Source of the DNA: an uncultured Pseudomonadota bacterium
GTDB lineage: Bacteria; Pseudomonadota; Alphaproteobacteria; RF32; CAG-239
Reading direction: 5' to 3'
DNA length: 64,000 nucleotides
Assembly: GCA_902785935.1 (NCBI GenBank)
Contig: CADAAN010000006.1
Span: forward strand, 4,309-68,308
Both the position numbers and the translations under genes were made by a program. Shown here piece after piece: positions 20,594 to 61,548 of the stretch. The notes beneath the pieces were generated by a model that worked only from the letters and a program-made list of their open reading frames with translations, was not told the DNA's origin and did not search any database. Each line of letters begins with the position of its first letter. Within the stretch, counting starts at the first letter, position 1.

Positions 20594-21493
20594 TTATCTG
20601 TACCTGATTTTGACCGAATTGACTTTGCCTGCGATGGCATTTGCTTCATCGATGGTGTAGATACGCTTTGGGATATAATCTCCTTTTTGCATCGCGGAAA
20701 TTGAGGCATAAGTTTTCTCACCGATACGATATTTCCCGTCAGGTGTCTTAGAATAATGAATAATTTTCGGGTTTTTACCCGTTTGAAGCGCTATTCTTGA
20801 ACATACCTCTTCGGAAGCCGCACAATATAGTTTTTGAAGGTTTGTGTTTGTAAAAGCTTCATCATCAATATTTGTCACACTATTCGGAATAACAAGTGTT
20901 TCAAGTGTTGAAATATCAGCAAGAGACGTCCAACCGATTGAGGTTACACCTTCAGGGATTTCCAGATTTTTAAGTTTTGTTCCGACAAAAGCTCTATCAG
21001 GAATTTCTGTTTGAGCCTGCCCAAGCATCAAATAATCTATTTTTGTTGCCGCAAAACTCCAAGCACCGACATATTGAAGATTTAGAGGTGTATTAATTTC
21101 TTTTAATAAATCTGCACCCTGAAATGCAGCACCGCCAATTTGTTCAATAGAATCCGGCAAATCAATACTGCTGATTTTTGTATAAGCAAGTGTATAACTA
21201 CCGATATTGGTTAAAGAATCCGGCAATGAGACACTTCGAATAGTTTCAAGTTTTTCAACCCATGGTGTTCCCGGCCTTTGGTTTTTAGAATCCCATTCGT
21301 AATTTGTCATTTTTCCGACAGGTGCATTTTCATCTTTGGCTTCAATTGAAAAAAGACCTGTCTGCTCATTTAGTCTGGCAAGGCAATTAGCGCCGCAATC
21401 CCAACAATTGATGTTTAAATCATCACCGCAAGTATTGACTGCTTTAGCTTGAGAGCTCATTGTCAGTAAAAAAAATAAAATCCATTTTCTCAT
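20594..21493 (-). CDS. Secreted BspA-type LRR protein with conserved C-terminal tag
   Basis: Signal peptide (..SSQAKA-VN), Cys-rich N-terminus, LRR_5 repeats. C-terminus KRIYTIDEANAIAGKVNSVKIRYR. Confidence 0.85.
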   Translation of the reverse strand: MRKWILFFLLTMSSQAKAVNTCGDDLNINCWDCGANCLARLNEQTGLFSIEAKDENAPVGKMTNYEWDSKNQRPGTPWVEKLETIRSVSLPDSLTNIGSYTLAYTKISSIDLPDSIEQIGGAAFQGADLLKEINTPLNLQYVGAWSFAATKIDYLMLGQAQTEIPDRAFVGTKLKNLEIPEGVTSIGWTSLADISTLETLVIPNSVTNIDDEAFTNTNLQKLYCAASEEVCSRIALQTGKNPKIIHYSKTPDGKYRIGEKTYASISAMQKGDYIPKRIYTIDEANAIAGKVNSVKIRYR

Positions 21494-21511
21494 ATTTTTT
21501 CTCCATTATGC

Positions 21512-21711
21512 AAAATAAAAAACCGTTTAAGATAAACCAAAAACGGAGGAGCTAAACGAACTGCACTAAATCAGTTAAGCTTATTCGAGGTATTAACCCT
21601 TATATCACTTACTCCTCTCTAAAGGAGTATATTTTTAGTGCAAGTGTCGTTTAAACACCGCAACCATTTTGGTTACGCTTTCATTTAAGCATATATCAAA
21701 ATACTTGTCAA
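21512..21711 (-). promoter_or_regulatory. Leader family A, copy A2: promoter + structured leader + terminator
   Basis: Minus strand: TTGACA (21711-21706), 17 nt, TTAAAT (21688-21683). GTAACCAAAATGGTTGCGGTG starts at 21676. The terminator CCGTTT/AAACGG plus T-run ends near 21512. Confidence 0.7.
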
Positions 21712-29406: not shown

Positions 29407-30540
29407 CTAACGATATCGAATCGAGAAGGTGTTTGTTTTGCCCGCCACCTGATTCGCCTCATCGACGGTATAAATGCGCTTGCCCTCATAGCCGATAATC
29501 TTGCCATCTTCATAAATGGCCGTACTTCCATCGGCTAATTTTTTAGAGTATTTAACTGCCATAATGTCAGCAAAGTCATTCGGGTCAAGCCCTGCCGCCT
29601 CAATATTTCTTTGGCACTTAGCGACAGATCCGGCACACTGTATTTCTATGTTGCTTATATCAAGGTTATCGAAAGGAGAATAAATTCTGTCATAACTAAA
29701 AAATACTTCACAGCTATCCATTTCATATGTACAGCCGGCTTCTAAAGCTTTACTATAAAGTTGTGTATAATCTTCTTCGCTCATATGGCTACGGTTATTT
29801 TCTACATTTTCTAAGCTGTAAAAATCATCTTCTATCACATATCTGCTGAATGCAAAATTAAAATCATCTGATACTGTGATTCTTTCAAGATTTTTAATAC
29901 CCTTAAAAGCACCTTCATCAATATACTCAACCGAATCTGGCAATGTAAGGCTTATCAAACCTGACATACCCATAAAAGCATCTCTCTCTATATTTGTAAC
30001 CGAATCCGGAATAGTAAGATTAGTAACGTTTCTCATATACGCAAATGCAGTATCTTCAATATTTTTCAGTGAATTTGGTAAAGTTAAATTTGTAACAGCA
30101 GTAACATCATAAAATGCACCGCTACCGATATCTTCCACCGCATTACCGATTGTTAAATTTGTTACGTTAATCATATTACTAAAAGCACGATCACCAATAG
30201 AAACCACAGAATCTGAAATTTCAATGGATGTAGCATTTGTAGCTTCTCTAAAAGCATTATTTCCAATTGTCGTTATACCTTTTTCTACAACAACAGAGGT
30301 GATATCTTCGCGAATAGCATGCCATGGCATACTGTAATGATACCAACCAGAATAATTCTTATTTTCAAAATCATCCATAGCACCAGTGCCGGAAATAGTC
30401 AAAATACCGCTATCCGTATCCAAGCTCCAATAGCAATTCTCGCCGCATTTTTTGTAGCCGCTGTTTGTACCAATAATATCTGCTTTGACGCCTGAGGATA
30501 ACAAAATAAATCCCATCATCAGAATACATTTATTTTTCAT
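29407..30540 (-). CDS. Secreted BspA-type LRR protein with conserved C-terminal tag
   Basis: Signal peptide (..SSGVKA-DI) and about 7 LRR_5 repeats (TNLTIPDSVTNIERDAFMGM...). C-terminus KRIYTVDEANQVAGKTNTFSIRYR. Confidence 0.9.
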   Translation of the reverse strand: MKNKCILMMGFILLSSGVKADIIGTNSGYKKCGENCYWSLDTDSGILTISGTGAMDDFENKNYSGWYHYSMPWHAIREDITSVVVEKGITTIGNNAFREATNATSIEISDSVVSIGDRAFSNMINVTNLTIGNAVEDIGSGAFYDVTAVTNLTLPNSLKNIEDTAFAYMRNVTNLTIPDSVTNIERDAFMGMSGLISLTLPDSVEYIDEGAFKGIKNLERITVSDDFNFAFSRYVIEDDFYSLENVENNRSHMSEEDYTQLYSKALEAGCTYEMDSCEVFFSYDRIYSPFDNLDISNIEIQCAGSVAKCQRNIEAAGLDPNDFADIMAVKYSKKLADGSTAIYEDGKIIGYEGKRIYTVDEANQVAGKTNTFSIRYR

Positions 30541-30564
30541 AATTTTTTCCCTTTTAAAGATGTT

Positions 30565-30864
30565 AATATAAAAAAGTTTAACCGCGCCTTTTTAAGTGCG
30601 GCGGGGAGTGAAGAAATCATGTAAACCTAAATGACTCTTGCAACCTTTAGAATAACTCTTGTACATCCTTTGCAAGCTCCCCAACCAAAACTTTGGGGAT
30701 AATCGGCATTTTATACAAAAACACCTTCAAAACAAACAGTGTTATCCGTCACTGAGGTTTACAAAAGCTTCTTCAAAGCTCCGCACCCAATACATAGGCA
30801 CTAAATGATAAGATTTCTCCCATCACTTAAGATTTATTAGAACACGTTTTGATTTAATTGTCAA
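30565..30864 (-). promoter_or_regulatory. Leader family B, copy B1: promoter + ~255-nt structured leader + terminator
   Basis: Minus strand: TTGACA (30864-30859), 17 nt, TCTAAT (30841-30836). Conserved blocks and covarying helices are shared with 41695-41952 and 61258-61513. A hairpin plus T-run lies near 30571-30606. Confidence 0.7.
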
Positions 30865-30946
30865 ATAAAAAAGCAAAATTTTATGTACTTTTACTTTTTT
30901 TTGAAGTATAGTAATGCCAGTTGAGGAAATATTTGGAAAAAAATAA

Positions 30947-32410
30947 ATGAATTTTATCAAAAAATATCCGTTTCAAATTTTTTTAAGCCTGCATTTTTTG
31001 CTTTGGAGCTTTTTACCCCTTTTGCGCAAAAGCCTGCCGATGGACAGTATTGAAGCTGTCGTGTGGGGGATGTATTGCGATTTCGGTACAAACAAACATC
31101 CGCCTTTATCGGGTTGGCTTGCCGATTTTGTTTATAACATCATCGGTTTTGAACAGCCCCTTGCCATTTATATGTTAAGTCAGCTTTGTGTGCTTTTGGG
31201 ATTTATTTATATTTATCGTTTGGCACGTGAATTTATCTCTAAAGAGCGTGCAACATTTGCCGTAATGGTGCTTGCCGGCGTGATTTATTATGGTTTCAGC
31301 GCGATTGAATATAATGTCAACGTGGTATCCTTGGCTTTGTGGCCGATGACGGCCTTTTACTTTTACAAGGCCTTAGATGAAGACAAGCTTACGGATTGGG
31401 TTTTAACGGGGCTTTTTGCGGGGCTTAATCTGTTCAATAAATACACAAGCGGTATTTTGCTTTTTTCTATGGGCGTGATGATGCTTTTTGATAAAAAAGC
31501 ACGCAAACATCTGACAAGCTATAAGCCTTATGTCTGTGCACTTGTATGTACAATAACGATTTTGCCGCATCTTTTGTGGCTTATTGATCATCAGTTTTTT
31601 TCGCTCGGCTATTTTATAGGCCGTGGCTCAAAGGGCGGATTTGACAACTTTCCGCTCTTAAAGCATATTGTTTATCCCATAAAATTTATCGGGGCGCAGT
31701 TGCTTTTCGGTCTTGGCGCATTTTTGGTTTATTTTACGGCATATTACAAGCAAAAACGCTTTGATGTGAAGGCAAACCGTTTTCAAAAAAACTTTTTATT
31801 TTTTCTGGGGTTGATGCCTGTTTTATTAATGACGCTGATAAGCTTTGTTTTCGGCTTAAAGCTCAAAAGCATGTGGGGATTTCCGTGTTATTATCTTGCG
31901 GGCGTAATGCTTTTTGTGTTTTTTCCATGCAAATTAACAAGCGTGTTTAAAAAAAGGATGTATATCGGCGTCTATGCGATGCTCTTTTTGCTCTTTTTTG
32001 CGCAGGGGTGTGTCATTTTGTTTAACAAAAGCGATAAATTTCACTTAAATCAGCAGGCCTACGGGCAAATGCTTGAAGATTTGTGGCACAAAAAATACGG
32101 CCGTTTTGATTTTGCTTATGTCGCAGGCGATGTTTGGTGGGCAGACAATGCCGCACTTTTTGCTCCATCAAGGCCAAAGCCGCTGATTTGGGGTGATATC
32201 AAACAAAATCCGTGGCTTGATGAACATGATATCAATGATAAAGGCGCCTTGGTTGTGACAAGTGACAAGTTTGAATATGATGATATCAAAAATAAGCTCA
32301 AATTTGTTTCAAAGCCTGAGATTTTGGAAATTGTGGTCACAAACAGACTTGGCAAAATCAAGAAAAAAACACTTTATTATGGTTTTTATAACGTTTACGG
32401 AGAAAGATAA
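30947..32410 (+). CDS. ArnT/LgmB-like GT39-family lipid A glycosyltransferase
   Basis: 487-aa polytopic membrane protein with the architecture of undecaprenyl-phosphate-sugar-dependent glycosyltransferases. Precedes the ArnC-like GT2 gene. Confidence 0.6.
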   Translation: MNFIKKYPFQIFLSLHFLLWSFLPLLRKSLPMDSIEAVVWGMYCDFGTNKHPPLSGWLADFVYNIIGFEQPLAIYMLSQLCVLLGFIYIYRLAREFISKERATFAVMVLAGVIYYGFSAIEYNVNVVSLALWPMTAFYFYKALDEDKLTDWVLTGLFAGLNLFNKYTSGILLFSMGVMMLFDKKARKHLTSYKPYVCALVCTITILPHLLWLIDHQFFSLGYFIGRGSKGGFDNFPLLKHIVYPIKFIGAQLLFGLGAFLVYFTAYYKQKRFDVKANRFQKNFLFFLGLMPVLLMTLISFVFGLKLKSMWGFPCYYLAGVMLFVFFPCKLTSVFKKRMYIGVYAMLFLLFFAQGCVILFNKSDKFHLNQQAYGQMLEDLWHKKYGRFDFAYVAGDVWWADNAALFAPSRPKPLIWGDIKQNPWLDEHDINDKGALVVTSDKFEYDDIKNKLKFVSKPEILEIVVTNRLGKIKKKTLYYGFYNVYGER

Positions 32411-40815: not shown

Positions 40816-41673
40816 TTAGCGATACCGAATCGAAAAAGTGTTTGTCTTGCCTGCAACTTGATTGGCCTCATCGATGGTGTAAATGCGCTTTGGTGCGTAA
40901 TGTTGATTGTAAATATCATTTGGGGAACTGTAAAACCTTCCGTTATAATAATAACCTGTTGAGTATTTTTGATAAAATTTAATTTTATCGCCAATTTCTT
41001 CATCGTCTAAAAGAGCCTGACAACTGGCATTTGTGTCTTCGCAATAAATAGCCAAAGATTCTGACAATGCTTTATTTATGGAATTAGTAAGCATTTTTTT
41101 TGTAATCATGGTCGAACCGGATATGGTTAAAGATTTCAATTCCGTGCCGCCTAATGTCCAATCTTCATCTTCAAGAATAACATCTTTGGGTAATACAATA
41201 TCTTCAACTTTTGTACGATTAAAATTAGCCCCTCCGATAAAAGTCAGACTATTTGGTAAATTAATTTTTTCAAGTGATTGAGTATCATTAAAAGCACCAC
41301 CCGAAATCTTTTGAAGTCCTTCGGGTAAAACAGCCTCTCGCAAATCAAACAAATATTCAAAAGCAGAAGAACCAATTGATTTAAATATTTTATCACTTGA
41401 TTCGTTTTCGATAACGACTTTATAAATTTGTGAAGAATAGGCTCCCCAATCGGCTGTATTATGGCACCATGGGTCACAGCTGTGACTATAATTTTTCATA
41501 TCACCATAACCTTTAATGGTTAATGTATTCGTGTTTTTATCAAGTGTTGCTGTACAACTATCATTTGAGGTTGCCGCACAGTCAAATGTACAAATATCAC
41601 TGTTATCACAAAGTGTATCAGCATATGTATTAAAAGCCGTAAATATACAAAAAATATAAATTACTTTTCTCAT
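40816..41673 (-). CDS. Secreted BspA-type LRR protein with conserved C-terminal tag
   Basis: I placed the true start at ATG 41673 (MRKVIYIFCIFTAFNTYA-DT, with GGAGAA 7 nt upstream). The 67-codon N-terminal extension in the track ORF runs through the conserved leader RNA. C-terminus KRIYTIDEANQVAGKTNTFSIRYR. Confidence 0.85.
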   Translation of the reverse strand: MRKVIYIFCIFTAFNTYADTLCDNSDICTFDCAATSNDSCTATLDKNTNTLTIKGYGDMKNYSHSCDPWCHNTADWGAYSSQIYKVVIENESSDKIFKSIGSSAFEYLFDLREAVLPEGLQKISGGAFNDTQSLEKINLPNSLTFIGGANFNRTKVEDIVLPKDVILEDEDWTLGGTELKSLTISGSTMITKKMLTNSINKALSESLAIYCEDTNASCQALLDDEEIGDKIKFYQKYSTGYYYNGRFYSSPNDIYNQHYAPKRIYTIDEANQVAGKTNTFSIRYR

Positions 41674-41694
41674 ATCTTTTCTCCAAAATTTATT

Positions 41695-41987
41695 AAACGA
41701 AAAAACCACTCTAAAATGAGCGGCGGGGAGTAAAAGAATCATGTAATGGAAAATGACTTCCGTAACCTTTAGGTCAAAACCTTGAACATACGCCACGGAC
41801 TCCCCAACCAAAATATCGGGGATAAGCATTGTTTTAAAATAAAAAAACAACACTAAAACAGCGTTATCTCTCACTGTCCATTACAAAAGCTCTTTTAAAG
41901 CCCCGCACCCTTTTCGGGTACTTGATAGAAAAAGCCAAAACCTTCCTATCTGATTTATATTATTACATATCAAAAACATCTTGTCAA
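41695..41987 (-). promoter_or_regulatory. Leader family B, copy B2: promoter + structured leader + terminator
   Basis: Minus strand: TTGACA (41987-41982), 17 nt, AATAAT (41964-41959). Conserved blocks as in B1 and B3. The terminator CCGCTC/GAGTGG plus T5 lies near 41697-41726. Confidence 0.7.
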
Positions 41988-42025
41988 GAAATTTTAAAAT
42001 ATTTTAATACGTGATTTGGCTGTGA

Positions 42026-42213
42026 ACGTAAATAAAAGCTTAGAATGAGCTAGATGCGACGGAAGCTCTTTTACGAAGTGTACAAAAGAGGTTGTATACG
42101 TAAATAAAAGCTTAGAATGAGTCAAGTACGACGTACGGCCGCTTGCGCAGTGTACAAAAAGGGTACATAAGCAAGCGGCCGCACAAGTAATTGGCCATTA
42201 TAAGCTTTTATTT
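42026..42213. repeat. Nested repeat element: 72-bp tandem duplication plus an inverted terminal copy overlapping the nusG stop
   Basis: ACGTAAATAAAAGCTTAGAATGAG occurs at 42026-42049 and 42098-42121. GTGTACAAAA lies 52 nt after each. The inverted copy TAAGCTTTTATTT is at 42201-42213. There is an internal GC-rich hairpin GGCCGCTTGC/GCAAGCGGCC (42137-42180). Confidence 0.6.
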
Positions 42214-42741
42214 TACTTTTTCTACTTGAGAAAATTCTAATTCCACCGGCGTGTAACGCCCGAAAATGGAAACTGAAACTTTAAGACGCGTCTTTTCTGT
42301 GTCTACTTCTTCGACAACACCGACGAAGGAGGCAAACGGACCATCTGTCACACGAACATTTTCACCGATTTCAAAGGTGGCCACAACTTCAGGACGCTCA
42401 ACACCTTCCTGCATTTGCTTTAAGATGTGATCAACCTCTTTATCGCTGATCGGCTGAGGTTTGTTGCGGCTACCCAAAAATCCGCTGACACGAGGCGTAT
42501 TTTTCACGACATGCCAAACATCATCGGACATTTCCATTTTCACTAAGATATAGCCGGGGAAAAACTTGCGCTCTGAAGCAACTTTTTTGCCTTTTTTGAC
42601 CTCAACGACATCTTCGGTCGGTACCAAGACGTCTAAAATGCGATCTTCCATCTTTTTAATGACAGCCTGTTCTTTTAAAGAATCGGCAACTTTTTTTTCA
42701 GAACCGGAATAAACATTTATCACATACCAACGAGCACTCAT
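42208..42741 (-). CDS. nusG: Transcription termination/antitermination factor NusG
   Basis: NGN domain (RWYVINVYSGSEKKV) and KOW domain (GENVRVTDGPFASFVGVVEEV). Follows secE. Confidence 0.95.
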   Translation of the reverse strand: MSARWYVINVYSGSEKKVADSLKEQAVIKKMEDRILDVLVPTEDVVEVKKGKKVASERKFFPGYILVKMEMSDDVWHVVKNTPRVSGFLGSRNKPQPISDKEVDHILKQMQEGVERPEVVATFEIGENVRVTDGPFASFVGVVEEVDTEKTRLKVSVSIFGRYTPVELEFSQVEKVK

Positions 42742-45086: not shown

Positions 45087-45986
45087 TTATCGATACCTTA
45101 TTTTGAAAGAATTAACCTTGCCCGCGACGGCATTCGCCTCGTCGATGGTATAAATGCGGATATCGGCACGAGCAGGAACAGATGGCAAGACAGATGGAGA
45201 AACAGTTCCTGATGCTGAAGCAATTTTTGCTCTGCAAGAAGTCTCCGTTTCGCAACCCTCTTCCGTTCCTCCCAACATCATTTTTGCTGCTGAAGAGTAA
45301 TAATTATCACCAACTTTATATACCCCATCTTCTTTAGTATATTGTTCAATTTTTGACGTCCCATGGCCTTTACAAATATTAACATCTTCGCAAAAAAGTT
45401 TTGTGTTGCTGGCAAACGGAAAGTTAACAATTGTTGTTCCTCTGCTAATAATGACATTGTTCAAGGATTCATTTTGAAAGCTACTTCCAAAAGCATCCTG
45501 ATTAATTTTCGTTACACCGCTTAAATCAATATCATGCAGGTTGGTTGTATATGTAAAAGCGCCACTTCCAATTTCTTTAACTCCTGTAAAATCCACACTC
45601 GACAAAGCAGATCGCGAAAAAGCGGTTCCGCCGATTGATGTAACACCGCTTGCAAAAGCAAGTGAGGTTACACCTTGAGGAAGCATTGATGTCCCATAAG
45701 TGTCATCTGCAAAAGCTGATCTCGGTACTTTGTATGTGAGATTGCCGTTTGAATCTGTTGAAGTAATTGATGACCCCTGAATGGTCATTTTTCCGTTATC
45801 AATAGTGTAGTATGTGAGCATATGAGAGGCATAGCTACTGGCTTGCGACAAACATCCTTCGCCATAAGTTGAAACACAAGCCTGACAAAATGTGTTCCCT
45901 TCAGGGCACTCAATTAAAGCAATGGAAATTTTTGAAAATGAAACTGTTGCTACTAATGCCGAGGTTAAAAAAATATTTCTAGTCAT
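45087..45986 (-). CDS. Secreted BspA-type LRR protein with conserved C-terminal tag
   Basis: N-terminal signal-like segment, Cys-rich region, LRR_5 repeats (VTSLAFASGVTSIGGTAFSRS...). C-terminus IRIYTIDEANAVAGKVNSFKIRYR. Confidence 0.85.
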   Translation of the reverse strand: MTRNIFLTSALVATVSFSKISIALIECPEGNTFCQACVSTYGEGCLSQASSYASHMLTYYTIDNGKMTIQGSSITSTDSNGNLTYKVPRSAFADDTYGTSMLPQGVTSLAFASGVTSIGGTAFSRSALSSVDFTGVKEIGSGAFTYTTNLHDIDLSGVTKINQDAFGSSFQNESLNNVIISRGTTIVNFPFASNTKLFCEDVNICKGHGTSKIEQYTKEDGVYKVGDNYYSSAAKMMLGGTEEGCETETSCRAKIASASGTVSPSVLPSVPARADIRIYTIDEANAVAGKVNSFKIRYR

Positions 45987-46020
45987 AACTTTTCTCCTAT
46001 TTTTCTTATTTACACTGTTG

Positions 46021-46212
46021 AAAAAATCACTTCAGAAGATATCCGAAGTGGGAGCTAGAAAACTGTATACATTCAGTCAGACTTATTCGACATTTCAAAA
46101 CGCTTATATCATCTACTCCCGGTAAAAGGAGCGATATGTATAAGGTGTTTTCTAGACACCGCAACCATTTTGGTTACTTTTTTATTTTCACATAAAAAAC
46201 GTAGCTTGTCAA
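46021..46212 (-). promoter_or_regulatory. Leader family A, copy A3: promoter + structured leader + terminator
   Basis: Minus strand: TTGACA (46212-46207), 17 nt, GAAAAT (46189-46184). GTAACCAAAATGGTTGCGGTG starts at 46177. The terminator CACTTCGGA/TTCTGAAGTG plus T6 ends at 46021. Confidence 0.7.
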
Positions 46213-52252: not shown

Positions 52253-52843
52253 TTAGTAGTCCCCTCTGATTACATGATAAAACCGACAGCTATCTAAACT
52301 TGTTTCACATGCCTGACAGCCCTCAATGATATCAGACATTTTGACCTCCGTAATACCTCCTGTAGGCCAATATATATCCTTACCGCCCACCTCTATCAAT
52401 CCGCCTGTCCACCATTCAACCGGGACGGCATTTTCCCATCCTGCAGAGGCAAAAGCAATACACGATTTTGAATCGGTGAAATGGATAACAAATTCACCCT
52501 GAACATATGAACCACCGCTATCATAAAAATCCATATTCAGCGTTCCTATCGGAAGTTTGCAAGCCTCGTCTCCATTAAGATCCGTTGTTACTTGACAATC
52601 CGGTAAAAGCCCGTATTGAATTAAATCTTCGGCATCACGAATCTCAATACCTTCTCCCCAGCCTTTTTGCTCCAACTCCATAAAGCGTTGAAGAATTTGA
52701 TTATATGTGTCAATTGTTTGATTCATTTTGTATTTAAACATTGCGGCAGAATAACCTTTGAGTGCGCCCGCCGACAACACACCGACAATAGCCAACACGC
52801 CCAGCATTTCAACCATACTTCTACCTATTTCATTAATTTTCAT
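52253..52843 (-). CDS. Type IV pilin / pseudopilin-like protein
   Basis: The N-terminus MKINEIG-RSMVEMLGVLAIVGVLSAG has a prepilin-type signal with Glu at +5, followed by a hydrophobic helix. Confidence 0.75.
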   Translation of the reverse strand: MKINEIGRSMVEMLGVLAIVGVLSAGALKGYSAAMFKYKMNQTIDTYNQILQRFMELEQKGWGEGIEIRDAEDLIQYGLLPDCQVTTDLNGDEACKLPIGTLNMDFYDSGGSYVQGEFVIHFTDSKSCIAFASAGWENAVPVEWWTGGLIEVGGKDIYWPTGGITEVKMSDIIEGCQACETSLDSCRFYHVIRGDY

Positions 52844-52863
52844 TGGTTATACCTTTCTTTCAT

Positions 52864-53061
52864 AAAAAAAATTCCGTTTTATATAACCAAAAACGGAGGA
52901 GCTAACTAACTGCCATTGTACAGCTTGCTTTATTCGCGCATCACTAAAATACCTTATATCAGCAACTCCTCATCAAGGAGCTATACAATGGATGTGTTAG
53001 TTAAACACCGCAACCATTTTGGTTACATCCTGATTATTTCATACAAAAGCATAAAAGTCAA
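52864..53061 (-). promoter_or_regulatory. Leader family A, copy A4: promoter + structured leader + terminator (pilin-like gene)
   Basis: Minus strand: TTGACT (53061-53056), 17 nt, AATAAT (53038-53033). GTAACCAAAATGGTTGCGGTG starts at 53026. The terminator CCGTTTT/AAAACGG plus T8 ends at 52864. Confidence 0.7.
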
Positions 53062-55373: not shown

Positions 55374-55490
55374 CAATATATTCATATTTTTTTAAGGCAA
55401 AACAATATTTTTTCTTGACAAACGGACAAAAGTGAAGTATAAGCTATTTTAATACAGTATACATATGTTTCACTTAAATTTATAATAATT

Positions 55491-56090
55491 ATGGAAAAGA
55501 TTAAATCTGCTGTCAATGAAGCAGCGTTTATTCAAAGCGCTGACAGAGAAACTGTCAAGGAGTACATCTCCAGACACCCCCTCCACATAGAAGCTGATAT
55601 CCAGCTCCTTGAACGTGGAGATAAGGAACTTATTAAGCTTTACATCTCGCAGTTTTGCTTTTTGAGCAAGGCTGAAATCAAGCTCATCGAGCTTAAAGAT
55701 AAGGAACTTATTAAGCTTTATATCTCTCGCTGCGGCTTTGAGGATGAGGCCAAAATCAAGTTCCTGGAGATGAAGGATGTGGAGCTGATTAAGTTTTATA
55801 TCTCGAAACGGCCGTTTTTCAAAGCGGACATTAAGTTCCTTGAGCTCGGAAACAAAGAACTTATCGAGCTTTACATCTCGAAGTACAGATTTGAGGCTGA
55901 AGCGGAAATCAAGCTCATCGAGCTTAAAGATAAGGAACTTATCAAGCTTTACATCAAAAATCATCGCCTGAGAGATGATGCTGAGATGAAGCTCCTCGAT
56001 CTGAAGGATATGGAGCTGATTAAGATGTATGCCTTATATCAAGGCTTTTCTGTAAGCACGCAGATAAACATCTGTGAACTTATTGTTTAG
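55491..56090 (+). CDS. Tandem-repeat protein (six ~26-aa helical repeats, consensus AEIKLIELKDKELIKLYISxxxFxxE)
   Basis: 199 aa. There are near-identical 45-50-nt DNA blocks at about 55673-55722 and 55905-55953. GC-rich codon usage. Has its own TTGACA promoter (55420-55425) and terminator. Confidence 0.65.
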   Translation: MEKIKSAVNEAAFIQSADRETVKEYISRHPLHIEADIQLLERGDKELIKLYISQFCFLSKAEIKLIELKDKELIKLYISRCGFEDEAKIKFLEMKDVELIKFYISKRPFFKADIKFLELGNKELIELYISKYRFEAEAEIKLIELKDKELIKLYIKNHRLRDDAEMKLLDLKDMELIKMYALYQGFSVSTQINICELIV

Positions 56091-59994: not shown

Positions 59995-60609
59995 TTAGTA
60001 GAATTTCCAAGAAACCGTTGCTTGTTCGGTGCATGTAGCTACAGCACCTGTACCCGAAGCTCCGCCCATCGGATAAGGTTTACCCTCATCAGCACCTAGT
60101 ACTTTACCTTTGGCATAATTTGTACCGGTAGAAGCTTCAATTTCTACACCGATAAAACCCGAACCGGCACCCGAACCAAAATCAGCCGTTGCAAGTGCAA
60201 TGCAAGCCTCCTTAGGTAATCCTTTGTAACTGATTACAAAGGCTGTTGGTTTTGCATCACCAGTAATTGCTGTATTGACAGCAGAAATTGTATTTGAAGT
60301 AGCCATAGCTTCTAAAATTTGAACACTTCCTTTAAATGGGTTTGTTAAAGCGGCAGGAGATGTACCCATTACAGGCGGAACAATTCCTAAACTGACAGCT
60401 TGTGTCGCCAAGCCGGCGTAGTTACCCTGCTGTCCATACATTGTTCGGATGTTTGTCACAAGCATTGTGATTTGTTCCATTGTCGTGTTGAGTTTGTGTT
60501 TGAACATCGCTTTTGAATAGCCTGCCAAACCGCCGGCTGACAAAACACCGATAATCGCCAAAACACCAAGCATTTCAACCATTGAACGACCATTTTGATT
60601 ATTCTTCAT
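59995..60609 (-). CDS. Type IV pilin / pseudopilin-like protein (distal gene of pair)
   Basis: MKNNQNG-RSMVEMLGVLAIIGVLSAGG. The first ~65 aa are nearly identical to the upstream paralog. C-terminus ..VSWKFY. Confidence 0.8.
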   Translation of the reverse strand: MKNNQNGRSMVEMLGVLAIIGVLSAGGLAGYSKAMFKHKLNTTMEQITMLVTNIRTMYGQQGNYAGLATQAVSLGIVPPVMGTSPAALTNPFKGSVQILEAMATSNTISAVNTAITGDAKPTAFVISYKGLPKEACIALATADFGSGAGSGFIGVEIEASTGTNYAKGKVLGADEGKPYPMGGASGTGAVATCTEQATVSWKFY

Positions 60610-60648: not shown

Positions 60649-61230
60649 TTAATAGAACTTCCAAATGATTGTGTTTTTTGCACCTGCACAATCACTAACT
60701 GCATCAGCCATTTCATACGCTTTTCCCTCAGCACGTTTGTTTGCAATGCCTGTACCAATGACTATAGAAGATCCATCTGCTGAGGCTGCTGCAGTACCTG
60801 TTTTATCGGCTATAACACCTACAAAACCTGAACCTGCGCCTGAACCAAAGTCAGACGTTGCCAAAGCAATACAAGCTTCTGTTGGTAAACCATCAAAAGC
60901 GACTGTAAATGATTCATTGTTTGTACCTGTAGCAACAATATTAACATTACCCTTAAATGGGTTTGTAAGTGTGGCTCCACTACCCATAACAGCCGGAACA
61001 ACACCAAGACTTGATGCTTCTGTATTTGTTAATCCCGCATAATTTCCCTGTGTGCCGTACATTGTACGGATATTCGTCACAAGCATTGTGATTTGATCCA
61101 TGGTGGTATTGAGTTTGTGCTTGAACATGGCCTTTGAATAACCTGCCAAACCGCCGGCTGACAAAACACCGATGATGGCAAGTACGCCAAGCATTTCGAC
61201 CATACTACGGCCGTTTTCGTTATTTTTCAT
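60649..61230 (-). CDS. Type IV pilin / pseudopilin-like protein (proximal gene of pair)
   Basis: MKNNENG-RSMVEMLGVLAIIGVLSAGG, Glu at +5. C-terminus ..IIWKFY. Confidence 0.8.
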   Translation of the reverse strand: MKNNENGRSMVEMLGVLAIIGVLSAGGLAGYSKAMFKHKLNTTMDQITMLVTNIRTMYGTQGNYAGLTNTEASSLGVVPAVMGSGATLTNPFKGNVNIVATGTNNESFTVAFDGLPTEACIALATSDFGSGAGSGFVGVIADKTGTAAASADGSSIVIGTGIANKRAEGKAYEMADAVSDCAGAKNTIIWKFY

Positions 61231-61257
61231 TTTTCAATTCCTTTTAAAAATTATTAC

Positions 61258-61548
61258 GTAAAACCGCCCCTAAAAGAGCGGTCGGAGAGTTAAACAATCA
61301 TGGATTAGAAAATGACTCCGACAACCTTTAGATTAAAAATCCTGAACATTCGCTACCGGCTCCCCGACACTTTTCGGGGATAATGTGCTATATTTAAAAT
61401 AAAAAATAACACCACATCAATACAGTGTTATCCTCACTGTCTAATCCAAGAGTTGTTTAAAACTCCGCGCCCGTCTCAGGCACTTGATAGAAAAAGTCAC
61501 CTCTTTCTATCCGACCATTATTTAACAACACAAATGCTTAATTGTCAA
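61258..61548 (-). promoter_or_regulatory. Leader family B, copy B3: promoter + structured leader + terminator (pilin-like operon)
   Basis: Minus strand: TTGACA (61548-61543), 17 nt, TTAAAT (61525-61520). Conserved blocks and covarying helices as in B1 and B2. The hairpin CCGC/GCGG plus T-rich tract lies near 61258-61285. Confidence 0.7.

Follow-up and report, generated by a model that had tools for sequence, protein, structure and literature searches.

In Firmicutes, riboswitches of the c-di-GMP-I/GEMM-I and c-di-GMP-II classes, named for cyclic di-GMP (c-di-GMP), gate the expression of pilin and adhesin genes, as in Clostridioides difficile and at cbpA of Bacillus thuringiensis (PMC6200980, PMC7423583). 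The subject of this analysis is a leader RNA that stands ahead of the same sorts of gene in an uncultured alphaproteobacterium (lineage RF32; CAG-239). The window, by which we mean the whole 64,000-nucleotide stretch of DNA that was analyzed (assembly GCA_902785935.1, contig CADAAN010000006.1, forward-strand positions 4,309 to 68,308), carries three copies of a leader here called family B. The copy under study, copy 3, occupies the minus strand from about 30829 to 30570, where ~260 nt lead from its own promoter to a terminator-like hairpin, followed by the gene for a 377-amino-acid (aa) leucine-rich repeat (LRR) protein. We regard copy 3 as very probably a functional, structured cis-leader RNA. 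Judged by sequence comparison, family B is a new family of a kind that is itself known, namely a structured cis-regulatory leader and orphan riboswitch candidate, and no description of it was found in the searchable literature, including a 224-motif survey.

By function, the c-di-GMP riboswitches are the closest analogues, with a likeness confined to gene targets and layout. Both they and family B join a covarying 5′ leader with invariant junctions and pseudoknots to a terminator-like hairpin, precede pilin or adhesin genes and occur in several copies per genome, whereas the family B domain is larger (~210 nt, 9-10 helices), yielded no clearly covarying antiterminator, and is hosted by low-GC Alphaproteobacteria. 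A second comparison is with the EAR element of the Bacillus eps operons and with put of phage HK022, which share with family B a folded, pseudoknotted RNA, a terminator downstream, no obvious competing hairpin and, in our comparison, the role of a leader of cell-surface genes. Family B departs from both in lacking an Rfam match, in preceding single short genes and in having conserved, mutually exclusive pairings; moreover, it is much larger than put. Third, T-box leaders are likewise multi-helix RNAs of 250-300 nt that end in a terminator, with a 5′/3′ closing interaction beside it, but family B precedes surface-protein genes rather than amino-acid genes and has no specifier architecture. Searches with Rfam 15 (4227 covariance models) returned two tRNAs only from the window at the gathering threshold, chance matches of 11-18 bits only from the region 30400-31000 at E ≤ 10, and nothing on the leaders of eight related loci at E ≤ 0.1. 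Thus, no GEMM-I or c-di-GMP-II aptamer was matched in the window, the copy 3 region or the eight relatives, no T-box was matched in the latter two scans, and the family alignment contains no AGGGUGGNACCGCG-like block.

That family B is a real entity is supported by its distribution. It comprises at least 46 distinct members inside and outside the window, drawn from metagenome-assembled genomes (MAGs) of rumen Alphaproteobacteria, from metagenomes, and from a divergent clade associated with mobile elements. A scan for the 3′ blocks through 185,579 species-representative genomes gave four loci in three MAGs, two of which are labelled Alphaproteobacteria (one from roe deer rumen) while the third is an “uncultured proteobacterium” bearing a rumen-catalogue (RUG) identifier. 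A metagenome scan that used the 5′ blocks alone retrieved 42 loci, 40 of them real members and two (L025 and L026) rejected as chance matches. Since the complete members retrieved in this way all carry the 3′ blocks at the correct distances, the objection that the family is a product of its own ascertainment is removed. Over 42 members the leader retains 58% mean column identity with many invariant blocks, whereas the proteins encoded downstream are only 13-42% identical or not homologous at all; the conservation therefore concerns the leader itself, which acts in cis. Taken together, the strong conservation and the many loci indicate a real family under selection.

The divergent clade was found on IMG/VR contigs (L056, L073, L077, L093, L113 and L131), where its members score 96-157 bits with the covariance model and were confirmed by both nhmmer and that model. 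They lie at 1786-2108 of L056, at 10020-10309 of L077 (identical to L073 and L093), where the leader adjoins phage tail genes, at 9302-9613 of L113 and at 3094-3397 of L131. A serine recombinase, ParB/RepB genes and a type I restriction-modification system share the contig of L113, and at least this member is, on the sequence evidence, located on a mobile element. Other matches to the loose patterns used on IMG/VR were mostly chance, or came from one unrelated phage coding sequence in ~25 contigs. That coding segment (…GGATAACACTATCCGAATGG…ATATCCCCGTTTGCG…GACGGGGAG…), near-identical in L107-L138, matched by chance; it occurs very widely in IMG/VR, in sample 3300045988 among others. Separately, the window's own LRR gene together with its family B leader recurs on metagenome contigs from ENA and Logan.

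Within the window, a filtered covariance-model search finds exactly three copies of family B, at 220-256 bits, with everything else below 14 bits. The initial annotation had described copy 3 as the third and most divergent copy of a structured leader family, with compensatory changes supplied by its 5′ hairpins, and each part of this description is borne out. Covariance model, nhmmer (E = 1e-52) and an alignment of the three window copies all place it in the family; its scores are the lowest of the three (175 bits against 206 and 226 with nhmmer, 220.5 bits against 242.6 and 256 with the covariance model); and its first hairpin differs in sequence from those of the other two copies while the pairing is retained. 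Among complete members of the rumen clade, copy 3 has the lowest nhmmer score of all. The two paralogs also lie on the minus strand: one at 41674-41967 (242.6 bits; hereafter the 41k copy), preceding a 285-aa LRR gene at 40816-41673, and one at 61235-61528 (256 bits; the 61k copy), preceding tandem type IVb pilin-like genes at 60649-61230 and 59995-60609 with Pfam matches to PilS, Bundlin and N_methyl. These two pilin paralogs lie 621 nt apart behind a single family B leader.

The evidence that the leader acts as a folded RNA is comparative. RNAalifold, applied to 42 members, predicts 54 pairs in nine helices, 37 of them with compensatory changes, and across the family as a whole 9-10 covarying helices are shared. 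Pair counts were made on three alignments, namely MAFFT alignments of 42 and of 46 members and a covariance-model-based alignment of 46. In these, 97-98% of the cells form a standard pair, as against 79-82% after shuffling and 36-47% when the partners are slid by 1-3 columns; the covariation score is 0.55-0.61, as against 0.24 for shuffled columns and about 0.1 for slid partners; and 39-41 pairs have changed on both sides, with none of 500 shuffles reaching the observed values. The column pairs of highest mutual information are those predicted to form helices H5, H4, H9, H10 and H1. Wobble pairs are markedly asymmetric (237 GU/UG against 26 AC/CA), which assigns the fold to the transcript that is co-oriented with the downstream gene, rather than to the complementary strand or the DNA duplex. 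The minimum free energy (MFE) of copy 3 itself lies 5.4 standard deviations below that of shuffled sequences (z-score -5.4). The transcript thus carries a structured, covarying 5′-leader domain of the kind generic to riboswitches, in which a core of ~210 nt between the 5′ hairpin and the terminator-like hairpin holds many helices and many invariant unpaired nucleotides.

Read from the 5′ end on the minus strand, the fold of copy 3 opens with the terminal hairpin H1 (30803-30828, AAGUGAUGGGAG / CUUAUCAUUU), in which all eight pairs are compensatory, and continues with H2 (30783-30801, GUGCC / GGUGC; 98% paired, three compensatory pairs). The segment 30765-30782 that follows can be used in two ways. 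Its GGAG (30782-30779) is the 5′ strand of H3 (GGAG:CUCC; 95% paired, two compensatory pairs), which closes the whole domain, and the same segment forms the local hairpin H4′ (GAGCUU / AAGCUU), present in all members with three compensatory pairs. As H4′ uses the AG of GGAG, the two are mutually exclusive. An H-type pseudoknot results, since the H4′ loop doubles as the 5′ strand of H4. Next comes the 5′ strand of H5 (30762-30756, GUAAACC), a helix that is 99.7% paired with compensatory changes in seven of seven pairs, and then hairpin H6 (CAGUG-ACGGAUAA-CACUG), which coincides with the conserved 18-mer CAGTGACGGATAACACTG at 30754-30737, a sequence with no match in 100 shuffles. H6 is invariant in the rumen clade, and in the divergent clade CAGUG/CACUG becomes CGGCG/CGCCG or CGGUGU/ACAUCG. 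Its loop GGAUAA is complementary to UUAUCC, and the divergent clade pairs GGAUAU with AUAUCC instead. A simple scan flagged H6 and the U-rich stretch after it as terminator-like in two copies (30754-30737 and 41879-41856), probably incidentally, since conservation of the U-rich tail does not extend across the family.

Further downstream, H7 (30705-30725) is a variable AU-rich hairpin with a U-rich loop, present as a hairpin in 42 of 42 members although its sequences differ. The region 30677-30702 comprises UUAUCCCC, which contains the conserved block TTATCCCC (30702-30695), then hairpin H8 (CCCCAA / UUGGGG), whose CCCC:GGGG core is 99.6% paired and nearly invariant, and the conserved block GGGGAG (30682-30677). 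This last block also has an alternative partner, CUCCCC at 30608-30603, with which it forms H11 (98.6% paired); the A position of H11 covaries with its partner (32 AU, 5 UA, 4 GU and 3 UG). H9 (CUUGCAAA / GUUGCAAG, enclosing the conserved internal loop GGAUGUACA), H10 and CUAAAGG fill 30637-30676, which includes the conserved block CTAAAGGTTG (30650-30641). H9 has compensatory changes in eight of eight pairs and is 99.5% paired, and H10 has two compensatory pairs. The 3′ side of the core (30603-30636) carries AGUCAUUU, with the conserved block AGTCATTT at 30636-30629, the H5 3′ strand GGUUUAC, AUGAUU (conserved in the DNA as CATGATT at 30621-30615), the H4 3′ strand UUCUUC and finally ACUCCCC, which supplies the 3′ strand of either H3 or H11. 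The invariant blocks listed in the initial annotation, CATGATT among them, were each located on the minus strand at these places. No reading frame is consistently open in the leader, as judged from stop-free stretches in six frames and from the family alignment, and the only candidate start of an upstream open reading frame (uORF), the invariant NUGAUU, yields unconserved peptides whose length varies between 2 and more than 24 codons. A leader-peptide attenuator was accordingly rejected as an explanation, there being no conserved short open reading frame (ORF).

The leader is placed between a predicted promoter and a gene. In copy 3, 17 nt separate TTGACA (30864-30859) from TCTAAT (30841-30836), all read directly on the minus strand (30864-30836) as the initial annotation had described them, with an extended -10 TG at 30844-30843 (TGn before TCTAAT) and a transcription start that we infer near 30829. 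Hexamers of the sigma-70 type in the same register, spaced within 16-18 nt, mark this as a predicted promoter, and TTGAC and xxTAAT recur at constant spacing in ~40 homologous loci, upstream of which conservation stops. A simple promoter scan omits the copy 3 -10 element because of the C at its position 2; in the same scan the 41k copy scores 11/12 with TG. At the other end, the terminal hairpin (30602-30581, then TTAAACTTTTTT) and its tail lie upstream of the LRR-tag gene as noted earlier. The ATG of that gene, at 30540, is 30 nt beyond the hairpin and U-rich tail and is preceded by a Shine-Dalgarno-like AAGGG at 30553-30549. The gene (29407-30540, minus strand) encodes a BspA-type LRR protein of 377 aa that begins with a signal peptide and ends in a C-terminal tag of 24 aa, matching Pfam LRR_5 at E = 2.4e-50 and, partially, the NCBIfam LRR adhesin HupY/LrrG. 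On the other side of the 406-nt intergenic gap that holds copy 3, a PMT_2 (ArnT-like) glycosyltransferase gene begins at 30947 on the plus strand (30947-32410) and is followed by a GT2 gene, in keeping with the divergent arrangement claimed for the locus.

The leader ends in a GC-rich hairpin and a U-rich tail, which occupy this position in 42 of 42 members, and the stems covary. Hairpin stability across the family ranges between -6 and -14 kcal/mol, and of the 8 nt that come after the hairpin, 5-7 are U in most members. In copy 3 (30570-30602, minus strand) the stem GCCGC.CUU / AGG.GCGGU has about -9.7 kcal/mol and an interrupted U-rich tail, UAAACUUUUUU, which puts it among the weaker members. 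The 41k hairpin is canonical and passes a simple terminator scan, and the 61k hairpin combines a strong stem with a short U tract; such differences among the three window copies would predict different levels of basal read-through. In folds of RNA that stops short of the terminator 3′ arm, the H2 3′ strand is found paired to the terminator 5′ arm in 27 of 42 members, and an antiterminator formed through the H2 3′ strand is, as a model, plausible. Another candidate antiterminator, pairing the 5′ GUGCGG register with CCGCAC, appears in the copy 3 MFE structure and was rejected, being not conserved in the other copies.

The genes that follow the leader are of specific kinds and have a common theme. 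When the first downstream ORFs of 39 members were compared with Pfam, 25 of the 39 proved to encode BspA-type LRR proteins (LRR_5) and at least seven PilS/Bundlin-type prepilins, and nearly all the remaining ones start with a signal peptide. In the divergent clade the downstream genes encode an autotransporter of 826 aa, a NucT-like PLD nuclease that bears a signal peptide, and a YpsA/SLOG protein. Wherever downstream sequence is available, the leader is in nearly every case followed by a co-oriented gene in fixed position and orientation, with usually 20-40 nt between hairpin and start codon and therefore no space for a second promoter. In several loci, MITE-like palindromic inserts (MITE, miniature inverted-repeat transposable element) lie between hairpin and gene, widening the gap while leaving the linkage unbroken. 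Inserts of this look, short, GC-rich and of MITE or REP (repetitive extragenic palindromic) type (e.g., GTCATCCCGAACTTGTTTCGGGATC and CCTCCCCCTTGAGGGGGAGG), were seen in L016, L024, L030, L040, L042, L043, L045, L046, L047 and L049.

Promoter, 5′ hairpin, multi-helix core, terminator-like hairpin and ribosome-binding site, in this order, make up the anatomy of a transcription attenuator. We consider it somewhat more likely than not that leader B is a conditional, riboswitch-like attenuator responsive to an effector. The comparisons establish the RNA family, which strand folds and how, and where the RNA lies relative to promoter, terminator-like hairpin and gene; conditional termination, the two states and the effector are proposals. 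On this account, a sigma-70-type promoter would transcribe the minus strand into the ~260-nt pseudoknotted 5′ leader, the folded domain would sense a putative effector, either a small molecule or a protein, and the effector state would set the frequency of read-through by polymerase at the terminator-like hairpin, which stands 30 nt ahead of the LRR adhesin start codon. How might such a switch operate? Covariation is seen in both of two incompatible sets of helices, in which H4′ is opposed to H3, and H8 to H11 together with the H6-loop pseudoknot, and column 76 of the alignment we denote A7 covaries with both of its alternative partners. The strands GGAG, CCCC, GGGGAG and CUCC(CC) could thus swap partners. 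In a state Y, H3 (GGAG:CUCC) would close the domain while H8 (CCCC:GGGG) sequesters GGGG, and H3 could extend via the H2 3′ strand into the terminator 5′ arm and so act as an antiterminator. In a state X, H4′ (its loop forming H4), the H6-loop pseudoknot GGAUAA:UUAUCC and H11 (GGGGAG:CUCCCC) would form, so that H11 ties up CUCC while H2 remains closed and the terminator can fold. We hold this specific two-state model with less confidence again than conditional attenuation as such.

Several observations weigh against conditional attenuation by this route. The terminators of copy 3 and of the 61k copy are imperfect and fail a simple terminator scan, that of copy 3 because of an A-C mismatch in the stem and the interruption of its U tract. 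In the family alignments, no antiterminator with clear covariation was found, and the duplex between the H2 3′ strand and the terminator 5′ arm is hardly stronger for cognate than for non-cognate combinations (-5.98 against -5.72 kcal/mol, permutation p of about 0.054); because this advantage is marginal, the antiterminator step is plausible rather than demonstrated. The covariation of H3, of H11 and of the pseudoknot rests on one or two columns each and on a small number of evolutionary events, and shared ancestry could account for part of it, the change in the pseudoknot is a single evolutionary event, and alignment A7 was itself fitted to the state-Y structure. Finally, one divergent member precedes the YpsA/SLOG gene, whose product looks cytoplasmic and does not fit the surface theme.

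Among the alternatives, processive antitermination survives best, although we judge it unlikely. Here the RNA, alone in the manner of put and EAR or with a NusG-type or other protein, would make polymerase resistant to the terminator just beyond it without any competition between strands. Genes for surface structures are classic targets of processive antitermination, as with RfaH/ops, UpxY, LoaP and EAR, and the surface-gene theme of family B fits this; so does a structured domain that is followed by a terminator with no covarying antiterminator found, and so does the fact that another leader family, unrelated but laid out in the same way, precedes the same gene classes. However, neither EAR nor any other family is matched in Rfam, the units downstream are single short genes for which processivity would be of little use, and the conserved alternative pairings are better suited to a switch. 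The RfaH ops/JUMPStart element (12-nt ops GGCGGTAGnnTG) was considered specifically. An ops-like CCGGTAGCGAATG occurs in the 61k copy only, and the resemblance was rejected because this string is the 5′ strand of H9, which is not conserved and covaries freely (CUUGCAAA in copy 3, CUUUUAGC in the divergent clade).

Less probable again is that each copy is an independent gene for a trans-acting small RNA (sRNA) with its own promoter and terminator, adjacent to protein genes only through co-duplication or incidental read-through. The unit is indeed discrete, with a strong predicted promoter, a 5′ hairpin and a terminator; there are several copies per genome; and the many invariant single-stranded blocks could be seed regions. 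Against this, a co-oriented gene is present in nearly every member, mostly so close behind the hairpin that no promoter would fit, the association spans non-homologous genes (LRR, pilin, autotransporter and nuclease), and the linkage survives the MITE-like insertions, a pattern expected of a cis element. We think it improbable, to a slightly greater degree still, that the leader is a constitutive 5′ untranslated region that only stabilizes the mRNA or boosts translation of abundant surface proteins and does not switch. A 5′-terminal hairpin at the inferred +2/+3 and downstream genes that are likely highly expressed would suit such a role, but a conserved internal terminator-like hairpin with a U tail is unexpected in a pure stabilizer, ~200 nt of invariant junction nucleotides and pseudoknots far exceed what known stabilizers need, and there are alternative conserved pairings. 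Least credible by far is that the unit acts as DNA (a mobile promoter cassette, a MITE or an invertible phase-variation segment) or as a small coding gene with no RNA function, a reading to which its repetition in the genome and its promoter lend some color but which is effectively refuted by the compensatory changes in 9-10 helices, the wobble asymmetry and the uORF and frame analysis, and which also fits poorly with the fixed position and orientation relative to the downstream gene and with an inverted-repeat scan that yields only AT-rich chance pairs and internal RNA helices.

If leader B is indeed a conditional attenuator, its occurrence before genes for LRR adhesins, type IVb pilins, an autotransporter and a secreted nuclease would unite these in a co-regulated surface-protein regulon. 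Family B would then be an orphan class of regulatory RNA, absent from Rfam and unusually well supported by comparative evidence, and a master cis-regulator of adhesin and pilus expression in widespread uncultured rumen and gut Alphaproteobacteria; the identity of its effector would reveal the signal for surface remodelling in these bacteria, and both the aptamer fold and the switching architecture would be new. A more ambitious proposal, which we offer tentatively and would not bet on, is that family B constitutes a new class of riboswitch, which recognizes a signalling molecule or a cue from the host and coordinates a whole surface regulon of BspA-type LRR adhesins, type IVb pilins, autotransporters and secreted nuclease in rumen and gut Alphaproteobacteria and their mobile elements, using an unusual exchange of four strands (GGAG/CCCC/GGGGAG/CUCC) with two pseudoknots rather than a simple terminator/antiterminator pair, while an unrelated leader, family A, might act as a second sensor on the same gene classes and thus impose two-signal control.

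Family A occurs in the window at 21494-21700, 45987-46200 and 52844-53050, all on the minus strand. It has its own TTGACA promoter and a terminator, and its closing helix is GAGGAGU...GCUCCUC. Two LRR-tag genes and one gene for a prepilin-type pilin (52253-52843) lie behind it, which are the two gene classes also found with family B. The two families are alike in layout, in that a TTGACA promoter leads into a structured leader with a GGAG-type to CUCC-type closing helix just before the terminator and then the gene. They have no detectable sequence homology, as nhmmer and covariance-model scans of the window with family B find only its own three copies, and the conserved blocks of family A (GTAACCAAAATGGTTGCGGTGT, TGATATAAG, CGAATAA and TAGCTCC, as well as GUAACCAAAAUGGUUGCGGUGU) differ from those of family B. 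With two unrelated leader families on the same gene classes, the genome would offer a natural system for combinatorial RNA-based control. At the DNA level, the prepilin N-terminal segment of the pilin genes behind the 61k copy is repeated (71% identity) in the family A-led pilin gene, at 52710-52844.

The LRR proteins of the window have a further feature in common. A C-terminal tag of ~24 aa, KRIYTIDEANQVAGKTNTFSIRYR up to the stop, is shared by four of them (tag segments at 20595-20665, 29408-29478, 40817-40887 and 45088-45158), with conservation of 61-85% in the DNA. The tag matches none of the sorting-signal models of Pfam or NCBIfam and may be an undescribed C-terminal secretion or anchoring signal. 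Directly upstream of the promoter of the 41k leader, at 42018-42161 and before a gene at 42208-42741, lie two tandem 72-nt repeats that are 75% identical. Elsewhere in the window, at 55591-56033, four copies of a direct repeat of ~134 nt (69-79% identical, with spacings of 78, 153 and 78) sit within the overlapping ORFs 55470-55964 on the minus strand and 55491-56090 on the plus strand.

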